A DNA stretch of 41,498 bases from Escherichia coli (GTDB lineage: Bacteria > Pseudomonadota > Gammaproteobacteria > Enterobacterales > Enterobacteriaceae): NCBI RefSeq assembly GCF_003334305.1, contig NZ_QOWS01000030.1; one strand, 5' to 3'. The notes beneath the pieces were generated by a model. It did no database searches and was not told the DNA's origin. It saw only the letters and a list, made by a program, of their open reading frames with translations. Shown here piece by piece: positions 24,792 through 32,588 of the stretch. The position numbers were made by a program, and so were the translations under genes. Every line of letters starts with the position of its first letter. Position 1 is the stretch's first letter.

Positions 24792-25174
24792 ACGAGGACT
24801 CCTGCGAGAAGTGAAAGCACGACAGTAATAACAAAGGAGGTTTTGGCGGAGCGTTTACCCGCTTCGAATGTTTCTTCCAGATAGCCAAAATCCATCATCA
24901 TGTGGCGAATACCTACGACGACGTGATACGCCAGAGCGGTAAGGATGCCCCACATGATAAATTTGACGAAGAAGCTGCCCATAATCGCGGAAGCTTGCTC
25001 GAAACCTTCAGGGGAAGAGAGGCTGGTACCCAGAAGCCACAGCAGGATGCCCACTGCAACAAAGGTGATCACACCGGAAACGCGATGGAGAATGGACGCT
25101 ATCGCCGTGATGGGGAACCGGATGGTCTGTAGGTCCAGATTAACAGGTCTTTGTTTTTTCACATTTCTTATCAT
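24785..25174 (-). CDS. sdhC: Succinate dehydrogenase cytochrome b556 subunit, 129 aa
   Basis: ORF-track entry 24785..25189 begins [12 protein letters not shown]; recognised SdhC begins [34 protein letters not shown], so the start is set at the second Met. Confidence 0.93.
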
Positions 25175-25882
25175 GAATAACGCCCACATGCTGTTCTTAT
25201 TATTCCCTGGGGACTACGGGCACAGAGGTTAACTTTCTGTTACCTGGAGACGTCGGGATTTCCTTCCTCCGGTCTGCTTGCGGGTCAGACAGCGTCCTTT
25301 CTATAACTGCGCGTCATGCAAAACACTGCTTCCAGATGCGAAAACGACACGTTACAACGCTGGGTGGCTCGGGATTGCAGGGTGTTCCGGAGACCTGGCG
25401 GCAGTATAGGCCGTTCACAAAATCATTACAATTAACCTACATATAGTTTGTCGGGTTTTATCCTGAACAGTGATCCAGGTCACGATAACAACATTTATTT
25501 AATTTTTAATCATCTAATTTGACAATCATTCAACAAAGTTGTTACAAACATTACCAGGAAAAGCATATAATGCGTAAAAGTTATGAAGTCGGTATTTCAC
25601 CTAAGATTAACTTATGTAACAGTGTGGAAGTATTGACCAATTCATTCGGGACAGTTATTAGTGGTAGACAAGTTTAATAATTCGGATTGCTAAGTACTTG
25701 ATTCGCCATTTATTCGTCATCAATGGATCCTTTACCTGCAAGCGCCCAGAGCTCTGTACCCAGGTTTTCCCCTCTTTCACAGAGCGGCGAGCCAAATAAC
25801 AAACGGGTAAAGCCAGGTTGATGTGCGAAGGCAAATTTAAGTTCCGGCAGTCTTACGTAATAAGGCGCTAAGGAGACCTTAA
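25175..25882. promoter_or_regulatory. Divergent sdhC / gltA control region (708 bp)
   Basis: Long AT-rich intergenic region between divergently transcribed sdhC (minus) and gltA (plus); contains a CRP-like motif and several GTTAA-type boxes. Confidence 0.7.
25469..25484. promoter_or_regulatory. CRP-like site (aGTGAtccaggTCACg) upstream of sdhC
   Basis: Sequence agtgatccaggtcacg, a TGA-N6-TCA dyad approximating the CRP consensus TGTGA-N6-TCACA; sdhC is reported to be CRP-activated. Confidence 0.4.
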
Positions 25883-27166
25883 ATGGCTGATACAAAAGCA
25901 AAACTCACCCTCAACGGGGACACAGCTGTTGAACTGGATGTGCTGAAAGGCACGCTGGGTCAAGATGTTATTGATATCCGTACTCTCGGTTCAAAAGGTG
26001 TGTTCACCTTTGACCCAGGCTTCACTTCAACCGCATCCTGCGAATCTAAAATTACTTTTATTGATGGTGATGAAGGTATTTTGCTACACCGCGGTTTCCC
26101 GATCGATCAGCTGGCGACCGATTCTAACTACCTGGAAGTTTGTTACATCCTGCTGAATGGTGAAAAACCGACTCAGGAACAGTATGACGAATTTAAAACT
26201 ACGGTGACCCGTCATACCATGATCCACGAGCAGATTACCCGTCTGTTCCACGCTTTCCGTCGCGACTCACATCCAATGGCAGTCATGTGTGGTATTACCG
26301 GCGCGCTGGCGGCGTTCTATCACGACTCGCTGGATGTTAACAATCCTCGTCATCGTGAAATTGCCGCGTTCCGCCTGCTGTCGAAAATGCCGACCATGGC
26401 CGCGATGTGTTACAAGTATTCCATTGGTCAGCCATTTGTTTATCCGCGCAACGATCTCTCCTATGCCGGTAACTTCCTGAATATGATGTTCTCCACGCCG
26501 TGCGAACCGTATGAAGTTAATCCGATTCTGGAACGTGCTATGGACCGTATTCTGATCCTGCACGCTGACCATGAACAGAACGCCTCTACCTCCACCGTGC
26601 GTACCGCTGGCTCTTCGGGTGCGAACCCGTTTGCCTGTATCGCAGCAGGTATTGCTTCACTGTGGGGACCTGCGCACGGTGGTGCTAACGAAGCGGCGCT
26701 GAAAATGCTGGAAGAAATTAGCTCCGTTAAACACATTCCGGAATTTGTTCGTCGTGCGAAAGATAAAAATGATTCTTTCCGCCTGATGGGCTTCGGTCAC
26801 CGCGTGTACAAAAATTACGACCCGCGCGCCACCGTAATGCGTGAAACCTGCCATGAAGTTCTGAAAGAGCTGGGCACCAAAGATGACCTGCTGGAAGTGG
26901 CTATGGAGCTGGAAAACATCGCGCTGAACGACCCGTACTTTATCGAGAAGAAACTGTACCCGAACGTCGATTTCTACTCTGGTATCATCCTGAAAGCGAT
27001 GGGTATTCCGTCTTCCATGTTCACCGTCATTTTCGCAATGGCACGTACCGTTGGCTGGATCGCCCACTGGAGCGAAATGCACAGTGACGGTATGAAGATT
27101 GCCCGTCCGCGTCAGCTGTATACAGGATATGAAAAACGCGACTTTAAAAGCGATATCAAGCGTTAA
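25883..27166 (+). CDS. gltA: Citrate synthase (type II), 427 aa
   Basis: ORF 25883..27166 plus; [72 protein letters not shown]... Confidence 0.97.
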
Positions 27167-27192
27167 TGGTTGATTGCTAAGTTGTAAATATT

Positions 27193-27226
27193 TTAACCCG
27201 CCGTTCAAATGGCGGGTTAATTTTTA
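27193..27226 (+). terminator. Rho-independent terminator of gltA
   Basis: Stem AACCCGCC(27195..27202) / GGCGGGTT(27211..27218), 8-nt loop, followed by AATTTTTAT. Confidence 0.75.
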
Positions 27227-27556
27227 TATGCCTAAACACAAAAAATTGTAAAAATAAAATCCACTATCGGACATTCATATATTCTAAAAAAAAATATATC
27301 GGTATAAATTATAAACAAATCGATGATTTTTAATCATCTATCTTCCTCTCAGTTACATGAATAAACCACCAAATATAGTGCACCCCTATAATTTCCAATA
27401 CTTTATTCATCAAACATTTAATTCATACCATCAATTAATTACTTTTACATTTAATAAAATTAATAATATTTTTAAGAAAAACTAAAAACATTCGACAATC
27501 AAATAAGATATTCTTGCACCGATATACTTTTTTCTTTTCTGTTAAAGGACTCCGTT
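27227..27556 (+). promoter_or_regulatory. AT-rich upstream region of the ybg fimbrial operon (candidate H-NS-silenced promoter region)
   Basis: 330 bp of very AT-rich sequence (long A/T runs, e.g. aaaaaaaaatatatcggtataaattataaacaaat) upstream of ybgD. Confidence 0.4.
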
Positions 27557-28123
27557 ATGTTTAAAGGACAAAAAACATTGGCCGCACTGGCCGTATCTCT
27601 GCTGTTCACAGCACCTGTTTATGCGGCTGATGAAGGATCCGGTGAAATTCACTTTAAAGGTGAAGTTATTGAAGCACCGTGTGAAATACATCAGGATGAT
27701 ATTGATAAAGAGGTTGAACTCGGTCAGGTGACCACCAGCCACATTAATCAGTCACATCACAGCGATGCCGTTGCTGTCGACCTGCGCTTAGTCAACTGTG
27801 ATCTGGAAAACTCCAGCAACGGTTCCGGTGGCAAGATTTCTAAAGTTGCAGTCACCTTTGATAGCTCAGCGAAAACCACCGGCGCAGATCCGATTCTCAA
27901 CAACACCAGCACGGGTGAAGCCACCGGCGTCGGCGTACGTTTAATGAATAAAGATCAAAGCAATATCGTTTTAGGCACCGCTACTCCAGATATCGACCTG
28001 GCTCCGACCTCCAGCGAACAAACGCTGAATTTCTTTGCCTGGATGGAACAAATTGATCAGGCTACACCTGTAACGCCAGGCGCAGTTACGGCGAATGCAA
28101 CCTACGTGCTGGATTATAAATAA
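27557..28123 (+). CDS. ybgD: Fimbrial major-subunit-like protein YbgD (type 1 fimbrin family), 188 aa
   Basis: ORF 27557..28123 plus; signal peptide MFKGQKTLAALAVSLLFTAPVYA, pilin-like C-terminus ...ANATYVLDYK. Confidence 0.88.
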   Translation: MFKGQKTLAALAVSLLFTAPVYAADEGSGEIHFKGEVIEAPCEIHQDDIDKEVELGQVTTSHINQSHHSDAVAVDLRLVNCDLENSSNGSGGKISKVAVTFDSSAKTTGADPILNNTSTGEATGVGVRLMNKDQSNIVLGTATPDIDLAPTSSEQTLNFFAWMEQIDQATPVTPGAVTANATYVLDYK

Positions 28124-28173
28124 GTATTACTTTGGCGGCGCTATCGCCGCCTTTCATAAAATATTTATCAGGT

Positions 28174-30633
28174 ATGGACACCGTGAATATTTATCGACTC
28201 TCTTTTGTATCCTGCCTGGTCGTGGCGATGCCTTGCGCATTGGCGGTCGAATTCAACCTTAATGTTCTCGATAAATCAATGCGCGACCGCATTGATATTT
28301 CATTATTAAAGGAAAAAGGAGTCATTGCTCCCGGTGAGTATTTTGTTAGCGTTGCGGTAAATAATAACCAAATCAGTAACGGGCAAAAGATTAACTGGCA
28401 CAAAAATGACGATAAAACCATTCCGTGCATCAATGATTTACTGGTCGATAAATTTGGCTTAAAACCTGAAGTCCGTCAGTCGTTACCATTGATAAATCAG
28501 TGCGTCGATTTTAGCTCCCGACCTGAAATGCTCTTCAATTTCGATCAAGCCAATCAGCAACTAAATATCACCATTCCGCAAGCCTGGCTGGCGTGGCACT
28601 CAGAAAACTGGACCCCACCCTCCACATGGAAAGAAGGTGTCGCCGGTGTCCTGATGGATTACAACTTGTTTGCCAGCAGCTACCGCCCACAGGATGGCAG
28701 CAGCAGCACTAATCTTAACGCCTATGGAACAGCCGGAATCAACACGGGGGCATGGCGCTTACGCAGTGATTATCAGTTGAATCAGACTGATAGCGATGAT
28801 AACCATGAACAGTCAGGCGAAATATCACGTACCTATCTTTTTCGCCCGTTACCGCAATTAGGTTCAAAATTAACCCTCGGCGAAACGGATTTTAGTTCCA
28901 ATATTTTCGACGGTTTTTCTTATACCGGCGCGGCACTGGCAAGTGACGATCGAATGTTGCCATGGGAACTACGCGGCTACGCCCCACAAATTAGCGGTAT
29001 TGCACAGACCAATGCCACGGTGACGATCAGTCAATCAGGCCGCGTCATTTACCAGAAAAAAGTCCCACCAGGCCCATTTATCATTGACGACCTTAATCAG
29101 TCTGTTCAGGGCACACTGGATGTCAAAGTGACGGAAGAAGATGGTCGGGTGAACAATTTCCAGGTTTCGGCAGCATCGACGCCCTTCCTGACTCGTCAGG
29201 GACAGGTTCGCTATAAACTGGCCGCGGGTCAGCCACGGCCCTCCATGTCACATCAAACTGAAAATGAAACCTTTTTTAGCAATGAAGTTTCCTGGGGGAT
29301 GCTGTCAAACACCTCGCTGTACGGCGGCCTGCTGCTTTCTGGTGATGACTACCATTCTGCCGCAATAGGTATCGGGCAAAATATGCTGTGGCTTGGCGCG
29401 CTGTCGTTTGATGTCACGTGGGCCAGTAGTCACTTTGATACTCAGCAGGACGAGCGGGGCTTAAGCTACCGTTTTAATTACAGCAAACAAGTGGATGCCA
29501 CCAACAGCACGATTTCCCTCGCCGCTTATCGTTTCTCCGATCGTCATTTTCACAGCTACGCCAACTATCTGGATCACAAATACAACGACAGCGATGCGCA
29601 GGACGAAAAACAGACGATCAGCTTATCTGTGGGCCAACCGATTACCCCACTAAACCTCAATCTTTACGCCAACCTGCTACATCAAACCTGGTGGAATGCA
29701 GACGCCTCCACGACCGCCAACATCACGGCAGGTTTTAATGTTGATATTGGTGACTGGAGAGATATCTCTATTTCGACGTCATTCAATACAACCCATTACG
29801 AAGATAAAGATCGCGACAACCAGATTTACCTGTCGATTTCGCTCCCCTTCGGTAACGGTGGTCGGGTTGGCTATGACATGCAAAACAGTAGCCACAGCAC
29901 CACACACCGCATGTCGTGGAACGATACGCTGGATGAACGTAATAGCTGGGGCATGTCTGCCGGACTGCAATCCGACCGTCCGGACAATGGAGCCCAGGTG
30001 AGCGGTAACTATCAGCACCTGAGTTCAGCGGGTGAGTGGGATATTTCTGGTACCTATGCCGCCAATGATTACAGTTCCGTCAGCAGCAGCTGGAGCGGTT
30101 CTTTCACCGCAACCCAATATGGTGCAGCGTTTCATCGCCGCAGCTCCACCAATGAACCACGCCTGATGGTCAGCACCGATGGCGTGGCAGATATTCCGGT
30201 TCAGGGCAATCTCGACTACACCAACCATTTTGGCATTGCGGTGGTGCCGTTGATTTCCAGTTACCAGCCTTCCACCGTGGCGGTGAACATGAATGACTTA
30301 CCCGACGGCGTAACAGTTGCAGAAAACGTTATCAAAGAAACGTGGATTGAAGGCGCGATAGGTTACAAATCACTGGCTTCCCGTTCCGGTAAAGACGTTA
30401 ACGTCATCATTCGCAACGCCAGCGGTCAGTTTCCTCCCCTCGGAGCGGATATCCGCCAGGATGACAGCGGCATTAGCGTGGGGATGGTTGGCGAGGAAGG
30501 ACATGCCTGGTTAAGCGGAGTCGCTGAAAATCAAAAGTTTACCGTGGTCTGGGGTGATAGCCAGCATTGCTCGCTCCATCTTCCTGAACATATGGAAGAC
30601 ACCGCAAATCGCCTGATTTTACCTTGTCATTAA
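28174..30633 (+). CDS. ybgQ: Outer-membrane fimbrial usher protein YbgQ (about 815-820 aa)
   Basis: ORF-track entry 28132..30633; usher-family features along the length. Start is uncertain: ATG at 28174 (MDTVNIYRLSF...) or GTG at 28183; the track's ATG at 28132 lies only 8 nt after the ybgD stop. Confidence 0.85.
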   Translation: MDTVNIYRLSFVSCLVVAMPCALAVEFNLNVLDKSMRDRIDISLLKEKGVIAPGEYFVSVAVNNNQISNGQKINWHKNDDKTIPCINDLLVDKFGLKPEVRQSLPLINQCVDFSSRPEMLFNFDQANQQLNITIPQAWLAWHSENWTPPSTWKEGVAGVLMDYNLFASSYRPQDGSSSTNLNAYGTAGINTGAWRLRSDYQLNQTDSDDNHEQSGEISRTYLFRPLPQLGSKLTLGETDFSSNIFDGFSYTGAALASDDRMLPWELRGYAPQISGIAQTNATVTISQSGRVIYQKKVPPGPFIIDDLNQSVQGTLDVKVTEEDGRVNNFQVSAASTPFLTRQGQVRYKLAAGQPRPSMSHQTENETFFSNEVSWGMLSNTSLYGGLLLSGDDYHSAAIGIGQNMLWLGALSFDVTWASSHFDTQQDERGLSYRFNYSKQVDATNSTISLAAYRFSDRHFHSYANYLDHKYNDSDAQDEKQTISLSVGQPITPLNLNLYANLLHQTWWNADASTTANITAGFNVDIGDWRDISISTSFNTTHYEDKDRDNQIYLSISLPFGNGGRVGYDMQNSSHSTTHRMSWNDTLDERNSWGMSAGLQSDRPDNGAQVSGNYQHLSSAGEWDISGTYAANDYSSVSSSWSGSFTATQYGAAFHRRSSTNEPRLMVSTDGVADIPVQGNLDYTNHFGIAVVPLISSYQPSTVAVNMNDLPDGVTVAENVIKETWIEGAIGYKSLASRSGKDVNVIIRNASGQFPPLGADIRQDDSGISVGMVGEEGHAWLSGVAENQKFTVVWGDSQHCSLHLPEHMEDTANRLILPCH

Positions 30634-30647
30634 TTAAGGAAATGAAA

Positions 30648-31379
30648 ATGACATTTATGAAAGGACTACCCCTTTTGTTGTTGGTTGCCAGTCTGTGCAG
30701 CCACGCTGCACTACAACCCGATCGCACTCGTATTGTGTTTAACGCTAATGATAAAGCTACCAGTCTGCGGGTGGATAATCGTAGCGATAAACTCCCCTAC
30801 CTCGCTTATTCCTGGCTCGAAAATGAAAAAGGGGAGAAAAGCGATGATCTTCTGGTCGCCCTGCCGCCGATACAACGTCTGGAACCGAAAGCAACAACGC
30901 AGGTACGGATAGTAAAGCAAGCCTCGACCACAAAATTACCGGGCGATCGCGAAACGCTATTTTTCTACAATATGCGTGAAATTCCTCCCGCCCCGGAAAA
31001 AAACAGCGACCATGCCGTTCTGCAAGTCGCCATTCAGAGTCGTATCAAGGTGTTCTGGCGACCGGCTGCATTACGCAAGAAAGCAGGAGAAAAGGTCGAA
31101 CTGCAGTTACAGGTCAGCCAGCAGGGCAACCAACTGACACTGAAAAATCCTACCGCGTATTATCTGACCATTGCCTACCTGGGACGAAATGAAAAAGGCG
31201 TTCTCCCCGGCTTCAAAACCGTGATGGTTGCGCCTTTTAGTACGGTCAACACAAACACCGGAAATTATAGCGGCAGCCAGTTTTATCTCGGTTATATGGA
31301 TGATTACGGCGCGTTACGCATGACGACGCTCAACTGCAGCGGACAATGCCATTTACAAGCCGTGGAGGCGAAGAAATGA
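30648..31379 (+). CDS. ybgP: Periplasmic fimbrial chaperone YbgP (PapD-like), about 243 aa
   Basis: ORF-track entry 30624..31379; AAGGA Shine-Dalgarno at 30636..30640 favours the ATG at 30648 ([20 protein letters not shown] signal peptide); chaperone-like core [17 protein letters not shown]. Confidence 0.85.
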
Positions 31380-32437
31380 GTGCTGGCAAGGGAGTGTTGC
31401 TCGTCATCTGTCTGTTATTTCTGCCGTTGAAGTCTGCGCTTGCCCTGAACTGCTACTTTGGTTCATCCGGTGGCTCGGTAGAAAAATCAGAAGCGATTCA
31501 ACCTTTTGCTGTACCAGGCAATGCCAAACTCGGCGATAAGATTTGGGAATCTGACGATATTAAAATTCCCGTCTATTGTGACAACAATACCAACGGCAAT
31601 TTTGAAAGTGAGCATGTTTATGCCTGGGTAAACCCCTACCCGGGGGTGCAGGATCGCTATTATCAACTCGGCGTAACTTACAATGGCGTTGATTATGACG
31701 CCAACCAGGGAAAAAGCCGCATCGACACTAACCAGTGTATTGACAGTAAGAACATTGACATTTATACCCCTGAGCAGATTATCGCGATGGGATGGCAGAA
31801 CAAAATTTGCTCGGGTGATCCCGCTAATATTCACATGTCGCGTACCTTTCTCGCTCGCATGCGGTTATACGTCAAAATACGAGAAATGCCGCCGCATGAT
31901 TATCAAAGTACGCTTAGCGACTATATCGTCGTGCAATTTGACGGTGCCGGTAGCGTTAACGAAGACCCTACTGCCCAAAACCTGAAATATCATATTACTG
32001 GTCTGGAAAACATTCGCGTGCTGGATTGCAGCGTCAATTTTTCCATTTCACCGGAAACACAGGTGATTGATTTTGGTAAATTTAATTTGCTGGATATTCG
32101 TCGCCACACAATGTCGAAAACATTCAGTATTAAGACGACAAAATCACAAAATGACCAATGCACCGACGGATTTAAAGTCAGTTCCTCCTTTTATACCGAA
32201 GAAACGTTGGTTGAAGAAGATAAAGCATTGTTGATTGGTAATGGTCTGAAGCTACGTTTGCTGGATGAAAACGCCTCGCCTTATACCTTCAATAAATATG
32301 CTGAATACGCCGATTTCACCAGCGATATGCTGATCTACGAAAAAACCTATACGGCTGAACTTTCGTCCATTGCAGGCACCCCCATCGAGGCTGGCCCCTT
32401 CGATACAGTGGTGCTTTTTAAGATTAACTATAACTGA
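31376..32437 (+). CDS. ybgO: Putative fimbrial adhesin / minor subunit YbgO, 353 aa
   Basis: ORF-track entry 31346..32437; start taken at [23 protein letters not shown] (signal peptide), overlapping the ybgP stop (ATGA). Confidence 0.85.
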
Positions 32438-32445
32438 TTTGCCAT

Positions 32446-32480
32446 GATGCCCTTTGCAGCCGGAAAGGGCATCTCTTTCA
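32446..32480 (+). terminator. Terminator candidate after ybgO
   Basis: Perfect 10-bp stem GATGCCCTTT(32446..32455) / AAAGGGCATC(32464..32473), 8-nt loop, followed by TCTTTCAG (weak U-tract). Confidence 0.45.
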
Positions 32481-32588
32481 GAAAATTGCTGATTTTCCCC
32501 TTTTCCTTGATTGCTGTTATTTTTTCCTGGCCCGGCTTTCTTTATGCTGTATCGATACACCAAAGAGAAAATAATGAGGGAGCGAAGG

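Follow-up and report, generated by a model that had tools for sequence, protein, structure and literature searches.

The Ybg locus between gltA and abrB of Escherichia coli: an intact chaperone-usher pilus operon with a predicted two-domain adhesin-like subunit

The ybgDQPO genes of Escherichia coli have been assigned to the pi type of chaperone-usher pilus systems (PMC3032704), and the survey of Wurpel 2013 describes Ybg as 'core-associated', constant in its position and frequently disrupted, and states that many E. coli fimbriae of this sort are cryptic and repressed by H-NS (PMC3559732). Expression of the K-12 ybg genes leads to adhesion, as related in papers that cite Korea 2010; ybgDQPO transcripts are 3- to 5-fold higher in non-O157 Shiga toxin-producing E. 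coli (STEC) associated with haemolytic uraemic syndrome (PMC6033998); efficient assembly of the YbgQ usher needs the translocation and assembly module (PMC11014939); and a genome-wide association study (GWAS) of STEC linked variants of ybgP and ybgQ with the host. Here we analyze positions 27227-32480 of a 41,498-nucleotide stretch of E. coli DNA (the window), which lie between gltA and abrB. We find there the already-described Ybg chaperone-usher pilus operon in an intact state and no new system, in agreement with the first-pass annotation of the stretch, which had recognized it as a known E. coli fimbrial locus: it is the Ybg of Wurpel 2013 (PMC3559732), and public genomes carry it at 100% identity.

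The four co-directional open reading frames (ORFs) between gltA and abrB are all intact, the only stop of each being the terminal one. Positions 27167-32510 are matched at 100% identity by E. coli strain H15, in which the Prokaryotic Genome Annotation Pipeline (PGAP) names the genes between gltA and abrB, in order, fimbrial protein, ybgQ (usher), ybgP (chaperone) and ybgO (fimbrial protein). The domain content of the products, the single terminal stops and the synteny with H15 bear out the earlier description of a complete four-gene chaperone-usher module, and the frames of the usher and chaperone, for which a check for frameshifts and stops had been proposed, are intact on re-translation. We put at about 90% the probability that this region is a chromosomal pi-class (Pap/Std-like) Ybg operon, intact and of the most frequent E. 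coli allele, with a mechanism that can be read by homology to the Pap and Fim systems.

The product of the first gene matches the Pfam family Fimbrial (PF00419) over residues 31-188 (E 4e-30). Its mature N-terminus, GEIHFKGEVIEAPC, has the character of a FimA-like donor-strand extension, and the alternating hydrophobic pattern that can be read in ADEGSGEIHFKGEVIEAPC at this end of the mature chain marks a predicted donor strand; the C-terminus is ...YVLDYK. Its best NCBIfam match, NF007276 (listed as 'fimbrial-like protein' and presumably the YbgD equivalog), gives 131 bits, short of the curated cutoff of 189, and PGAP applies the name ybgD to the K-12-type gene while calling the window allele just 'fimbrial protein'. 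The name ybgD proposed in the first-pass annotation is accordingly right for the position of the gene and wrong for its allele, as the protein shares 79% of its amino acids with that of K-12 and lies below the NF007276 cutoff; on sequence grounds the window pilin is best described as an allelic variant occupying the place of ybgD and not as K-12 YbgD. YbgQ displays the complete usher architecture, with Pfam PapC_N at residues 26-165 (E 2e-33), Usher at 183-733 (E 1e-188, spanning positions 2-548 of the 549 in the model) and PapC_C at 746-802 (E 2e-12); its best NCBIfam model is that of the pi-type usher StdB, with a score below the cutoff. YbgP comprises the Pfam domains PapD_N and PapD_C, and its best relative in the PDB is PapD (E 9.5e-50, as against 1e-28 for FimC); a phmmer alignment of the two places the invariant subunit-anchoring Arg8 and Lys112 of PapD at R28 and K134. 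Taken together, the nearest NCBIfam models for the proteins of the operon are StdB, SteC, StfD and StdC of the Salmonella Std, Ste and Stf fimbriae, all below their cutoffs, and the reading as a pi-class system thus agrees with the published assignment.

The last gene of the operon encodes a subunit whose sequence alone is little informative. YbgO finds no NCBIfam family at E<=0.001 and only a weak Pfam Fimbrial match over residues 218-353, and its N-terminal domain matches no lectin or adhesin family in either Pfam or NCBIfam. Structure prediction with AlphaFold2 from 44 homologues gave a confident model (predicted local distance difference test score, pLDDT, 88.7), and its best matches in the PDB are the two-domain tip adhesins LpfD, CupB6, CsuE, FimH and PapG. 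Because the model matches two-domain tip adhesins, we interpret YbgO as an adhesin-like subunit of two domains, the receptor-binding one being divergent, and the structure prediction supports an arrangement in which a predicted beta-sandwich receptor-binding domain is mounted on a pilin domain. In YbgO, the cysteines at positions 3 and 45 of the mature chain are invariant and would parallel the Cys3-Cys44 disulfide of FimH. The earlier guess that YbgO might be an adhesin, to be sought by profile or structure, is therefore supported by structure prediction, which points to a tip adhesin, the profile search having yielded no family for the N-domain.

Table 1. Features of the gltA-abrB interval and its flanks, in positions of the window.
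Feature	Position	Strand	Remarks
gltA (left flank)	25883-27166	+	
gltA intrinsic terminator	27193-27220	+	12-bp stem with 6 GC pairs, then TTTTTATATG
AT-rich regulatory tract upstream of ybgD	27226-27556	+	~23% GC; presumed H-NS-bound 'promoter island'
sigma-70 promoter-like site, TAAACA-16-TAAAAT	27233-27260	+	consensus scan
ybgD-type major pilin gene	27557-28123	+	188 aa; non-K-12 allele
GC-rich hairpin between pilin and usher genes	28134-28151	+	GGCGGCG-CUAU-CGCCGCC, then UUUCAU
ybgQ, usher gene	28174-30633	+	819 aa; alternative start GTG 28183
ybgP, periplasmic chaperone gene	30648-31379	+	243 aa
ybgO, two-domain tip-adhesin-like subunit gene	31376-32437	+	353 aa
ybgO signal peptide	31376-31444	+	
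ybgO receptor-binding-like N-domain	31445-32023	+	aa 24-216
ybgO pilin domain	32024-32434	+	aa 217-353
hairpin 3' of ybgO	32446-32473	+	10-bp stem GAUGCCCUUU/AAAGGGCAUC; minimum free energy -20.6 kcal/mol, z -2.3
abrB (right flank)	32589-33635	+	

The gene coordinates follow the PGAP annotation of H15, the mechanical ORF of ybgQ beginning at TTG 28132, and the stop of ybgP overlaps the start of ybgO as ATGA. The left edge of the examined stretch is the base directly past the gltA intrinsic terminator, which bounds both the locus and the zone of strong inter-strain divergence on the left; the right edge lies just beyond the hairpin 3' of ybgO, which is probably the terminator of the operon and its right boundary. 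Because the T-run of this hairpin is weak, we infer rather than observe termination at that point; the hairpin is kept in genomes from which the ybg operon has been deleted. An Rfam scan of 25000-33800 (E<=1) returned no known RNA element, giving only a sub-threshold chance match over the gltA terminator.

The entire gltA-ybgD spacer measures 390 bp at 25.6% GC. The 331 bp starting at 27221 have a GC fraction of 0.23, the minimum among all 331-bp intervals across the 41.5 kb and about 5 standard deviations (sd) below their mean (0.513, sd 0.053), the next minimum being 0.30 near 9300; the claim of some 330 bp of extremely AT-rich DNA upstream of the operon is thus confirmed. The spacer is AT-rich in every allele compared (GC 0.26-0.36) despite a sequence conservation of just 53-82%. 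The promoter-like site found within it is identical in the K-12 allele, and a K-12 study by genomic SELEX (systematic evolution of ligands by exponential enrichment) assigns the same hexamers with the same spacing to the 'constitutive promoter' of ybgD recognized by the RpoD holoenzyme and flags the spacer as HNS (PMC3946193). The K-12 ybgD/gltA spacer is also among 78 promoter islands, which the study that defined them reports to be H-NS-bound and transcriptionally suppressed (PMC3661553). Since these published K-12 data cover the orthologous spacer, silencing of the operon by H-NS is supported by the literature for the K-12 ortholog and would, by analogy, apply to the window as well. The spacer contains no GATC site, and a Dam/Lrp phase switch of the Pap/Std type is therefore unlikely. 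No invertible element like fimS was found in it, the inverted repeats being short, AT-rich and imperfect, and no convincing small ORF, as only low-complexity ORFs of 20-42 aa occur.

The motif TCGATAAATT, which we take to be a high-affinity H-NS motif, occurs in the entire window as 2 exact and 8 one-mismatch matches, above the level in shuffled sequence. The AT tract itself gives 2-mismatch matches only, and one exact and two 1-mismatch matches fall within 270 bp at the 5' end of ybgQ (28188-28454); as a weak lead, this cluster may be a downstream nucleation site for H-NS. The hairpin between the pilin and usher genes has a minimum free energy of -17.2 kcal/mol (z -3.6), with none of 200 shuffles equally stable, and its GGCGGC/GCCGCC stem is kept in K-12, in O157, in Escherichia sp. 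E2593 of a cryptic lineage and in a metagenome-assembled genome (MAG) of the Enterobacteriaceae, while the loops differ. Such an element may act as an attenuator or as a stabilizer of mRNA that sets an excess of pilin.

These observations, read against the Pap and Fim systems, suggest a model for the expression and assembly of the pilus. Transcription would begin in the AT-rich spacer at the promoter in Table 1, with H-NS coating the spacer in ordinary culture and keeping the operon mostly silent; the GC hairpin conserved behind the pilin gene would probably lift the ratio of pilin to usher transcript. Sec would carry the subunits into the periplasm, where YbgP would take hold of them by donor-strand complementation at the Arg/Lys anchor pair and hand them to the YbgQ usher. 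We propose that the two-domain YbgO enters first and becomes the tip, where it would present its beta-sandwich receptor-binding domain, and that YbgD subunits would then polymerize into the shaft by donor-strand exchange; for K-12, surface filaments of this kind are reported in secondary citations of Korea 2010.

The composition of the coding region is far less unusual than that of the spacer. The first-pass annotation had described the operon as visibly more AT-rich than its flanks, and this holds weakly: the coding region has 48.2% GC as against 51.2% for the window, and only ybgO (44.4%) and ybgD (47.8%) are clearly lower, whereas ybgQ (49.7%) and ybgP (49.6%) equal gltA (50.1%). Codon adaptation, scored against leave-one-out reference sets made from the window's own genes, is lower in the operon than in the tricarboxylic acid (TCA) cycle and cyd genes and lies in the range of abrB, nei, pxpA, pxpB and phrB, and the frequency of rare codons likewise stays inside the range of these neighbouring core genes of low expression. 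The proposed comparison of GC content and codon usage with the flanks therefore sets the operon apart from the highly expressed TCA genes and not from abrB, nei and phrB; a composition indistinguishable from the neighbours had been named as the result that would speak against foreign origin, and since ybgQ and ybgP match their neighbours in composition and codon usage, half of that result was found. The compositional anomaly of the coding region is weak.

The distribution of the locus was assessed among 5426 complete E. coli genomes. Some match to it is present in 4764, at least 80% of its length is covered in 4155, and 4175 have a full-length gene at the ybgD position, so that ~77% keep a full-length locus. 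In 559 genomes gltA and abrB lie within ~1 kb of one another. Two such 'empty' sites that were sampled keep the final 45 bp or 393 bp of ybgO, and because these 3' remnants persist we regard the sites as independent deletion scars, not as virgin ones. A further 661 genomes, which match the ~662 without any ybg sequence, have in its place an island for sugar-acid use adjoining abrB; it measures ~7 kb and encodes a tripartite ATP-independent periplasmic (TRAP) transporter, a UxaA hydrolase, a dehydrogenase and a GntR regulator. Sequence type 131 (ST131) is an example, with 46 bp between the stops of gltA and dctM and no remnant of ybg. A junction of ybgO with dctM, as expected if both were present together, occurs in none of the E. 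coli genomes, while Escherichia sp. E2593 has gltA, ybgDQPO and the TRAP island in tandem; this exclusivity within E. coli and the presence of both in E2593 suggest reciprocal loss from a composite ancestral locus. In the Enterobacteriaceae MAG the order is gltA-ybgDQPO-nei, with a YbgO that is 74% identical. No integrase, insertion sequence (IS), tRNA or flanking direct or inverted repeat was detected by a tRNA search, a repeat search of 27100-32650 or in the H15 annotation.

The ybg locus is thus old at its position next to gltA in Escherichia and has repeatedly been lost, which fits the label of a 'core-associated' and often disrupted system given to Ybg in Wurpel 2013 and does not fit a recent insertion (PMC3559732). 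The proposed comparison across genomes for presence and pseudogenization accordingly returns a mixed picture, in which the operon is widespread and intact, yet deleted, replaced or disrupted in some genomes. In individual genomes the ybgD-type gene carries an IS1 insertion or is reduced to its first 89 bp (NZ_CP075697.1, NZ_CP128581.1), and one match to the locus is on a plasmid record. In Shigella flexneri 2457T ybgO has become a pseudogene, and truncated YbgO clusters are numerous in the databases.

Comparison with K-12 and O157 reveals how deeply the alleles diverge. Identity to both strains is 98-100% up to the gltA stop, drops abruptly and recovers around abrB. Relative to K-12 the identity is mosaic (spacer 70-82%, pilin 66-86%, 5' part of the usher gene 86-92%, 3' part 97-99%, 5' part of the chaperone gene 78-83%), with 75.6% for ybgD as a whole at the DNA level, while against O157 the entire operon is ~78% identical. 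At the protein level the identities to K-12 and O157 are, respectively, 79% and 72% for YbgD, 95.7% and 83% for YbgQ, 90.5% and 79% for YbgP and 97.5% and 86% for YbgO, compared with 100% and 99.5% for GltA. Synonymous divergence (dS) from O157 is 1.45-1.79 in all four genes, and from K-12 it is 1.2 in ybgD; gltA and abrB give 0.045-0.07 and 0.08-0.2. The dS between ybg lineages is comparable to or above the divergence of E. coli from Salmonella, and the lineages of the window and K-12, of O157 and of E2593 are about equidistant. The ratio of nonsynonymous to synonymous divergence (dN/dS) is 0.05-0.14 in all four genes, between alleles with dS of 0.2-1.8, and this low ratio shows that the ybg genes, though often lost, are clearly maintained by selection. 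When the genomes are classed by the identity of their ybgD to that of the window, 2827 are at least 95% identical, 1338 (K-12 included) fall at 60-80%, and the class between them, at 80-95%, is nearly empty (21 of 4186); with 2827 genomes in its class, the window pilin is the majority type of E. coli, and 1388 genomes are at least 99% identical to the allele present here.

Alleles so old, discrete and mosaic would point either to selection on the shaft that is balancing or diversifying (antigenic), or to introgression from other Escherichia; the constraint on YbgO would indicate that one receptor specificity is conserved alongside variation of the shaft. We see an even chance that the gltA-abrB interval is a long-lived polymorphic site with discrete and very old ybg lineages, to which the reciprocal loss of ybg and TRAP from a composite ancestor is added. 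Against O157, the divergence also reaches into the last 200 bp of gltA (26967-27166, 90.5% identity) and the first ~600 bp on the abrB side (32537-33136, 90-94%), identity beyond these points being 98-100% on the gltA side and ~96-99% past abrB; because the divergent tract spills into both genes, recombination breakpoints are placed inside the flanking core genes.

The first-pass annotation took the operon to be inserted between gltA and abrB by horizontal transfer, and a recent genomic islet would account for the extreme AT-rich upstream tract and the 44.4% GC of ybgO, for the occurrence of a homologous four-gene cassette at another locus (zupT-ribB) in Enterobacter hormaechei, for the place of Ybg outside the six fimbrial types that Wurpel 2013 finds at the same locus in Salmonella (PMC3559732), for the K-12 spacer being one of the promoter islands, 75 of 78 of which are associated with predicted foreign genes (PMC3661553), and for the TRAP/UxaA island that 661 E. 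coli genomes hold at the site. We nevertheless consider recent insertion highly improbable, given the missing signs of mobility, the gltA-like GC of ybgQ and ybgP, codon usage like that of core neighbours of low expression, an operon adjacent to gltA in E2593 and the MAG, two sampled 'empty' sites that prove to be deletions, and ybg sequence kept in 4764 of the genomes; acquisition from outside can stand at most on a deep timescale. If the operon is old, it could still be a decaying relic without present function, in the course of being lost and intact here by chance. The literature describes it as silent in the laboratory, 'cryptic' and not intact in many strains (Wurpel 2013, PMC3559732), and the deletion scars counted in 559 genomes, the different island in 661, the IS1-disrupted copies, the Shigella flexneri pseudogene and the truncated YbgO clusters all speak for decay. 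We judge this improbable: the operon is transcribed in STEC isolates (PMC6033998) and, according to secondary citation of Korea 2010, forced expression leads to adhesion. Moreover, ~77% of complete genomes hold the full-length locus, and dN/dS stays at 0.05-0.14 across alleles with saturated dS and falls to 0.03-0.04 in the putative receptor-binding domain.

A different objection concerns YbgO, which could be a structural minor subunit of unusual size, serving for instance as anchor, terminator or adaptor, with the binding specificity residing in the YbgD shaft; some pi and kappa systems do bind via their major subunits, and the N-domain belongs to no lectin or adhesin sequence family. We regard this as unlikely, because the best structural matches of the full-length model are all two-domain tip adhesins and the nine best matches of the N-domain are all receptor-binding domains of pilus tips or full-length pilus-tip adhesins. 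The mature protein opens straight into the N-domain and lacks a donor-strand extension, as a tip subunit would, and conservation within the operon is highest in the N-domain and lowest in YbgD. Some features do weigh against the reading as a silenced pi-class pilus operon that works like Pap and Fim. The data on H-NS binding and on the promoter come from K-12, which shares no more than 70-82% of its spacer sequence with the window; the terminator-like hairpins have weak T-runs; and the operon includes neither adaptor or terminator minor pilins nor a dedicated regulator, so that assembly may differ from that of Pap and Fim.

For an intact Ybg operon of the majority allele, several consequences follow. 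The locus was correctly recognized at first pass and had been catalogued before, and no new system is hidden inside it. Residues 24-216 of YbgO, a confidently modelled receptor-binding domain under strong purifying selection, offer a concrete construct for ligand screening. The locus is also a clean natural case in which deeply diverged alleles, sharply bounded by recombination, adjoin a housekeeping gene. Deep allele structure can confound GWAS based on single-nucleotide polymorphisms, and in view of it the host-association signals at ybgP and ybgQ may just track allele class. K-12 is unrepresentative of E. coli for the major pilin.

Three observations were made in the neighbourhood of the operon. 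Upstream of the cydA ORF (7605-9176, minus strand) is the stretch of the window that ranks second in AT content (9300-9830, ~30% GC), and the mngB-cydA spacer is flagged as HNS-bound in the K-12 genomic SELEX table as well (PMC3946193). In the divergent sdhC-gltA spacer, a 35-aa ORF on the plus strand (25570-25677) encodes the hypothetical protein WP_001305582.1, which corresponds to Pfam YbgU in related loci and is conserved in all E. coli and Escherichia loci compared. Directly upstream of the abrB start is a 34-bp imperfect palindrome, TTTCTTTATGCTGTATCGATACACCAAAGAGAAA (32537-32570), which is kept where ybg has been deleted and, to judge from its position, may be an operator of abrB.

Comparison with described systems suggests a place for the operon among the pi-class fimbriae. 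The Ybg locus of K-12 (ybgD-ybgQ-ybgP-ybgO, b0719-b0716 region) agrees with it in site, gene order, gene sizes, strand and promoter hexamers, and differs in its pilin (79% of amino acids), its spacer (70-82%) and, in mosaic fashion, elsewhere. The Yqi fimbriae of E. coli (ygiL-yqiGHI) share the class and the four-gene architecture and occupy another chromosomal site. An E. coli fimbrial protein of 349 aa, P0112, which we presume to be YqiI, is ~37% identical to YbgO. At the E. coli ygiL-yqiGHI site, between zupT and ribB, Enterobacter hormaechei has a ybg-like cassette of four genes (4165-9062 of that locus) with an adhesin 62% identical to YbgO; as this adhesin is closer to YbgO than P0112 is, the cassette appears to have occupied different chromosomal sites across genera. 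Among the Salmonella Std, Stf and Ste fimbriae, the usher models of the StdB type are the closest to YbgQ. With the P pili (Pap) of uropathogenic E. coli, the operon shares a chaperone that is closest to PapD and has the equivalents of Arg8 and Lys112, as well as a terminal subunit of the two-domain adhesin type. The model of YbgO, with its beta-sandwich N-terminal domain atop a pilin domain, is reminiscent of LpfD, MrkD, the F17-like UclD/GafD and FimH.

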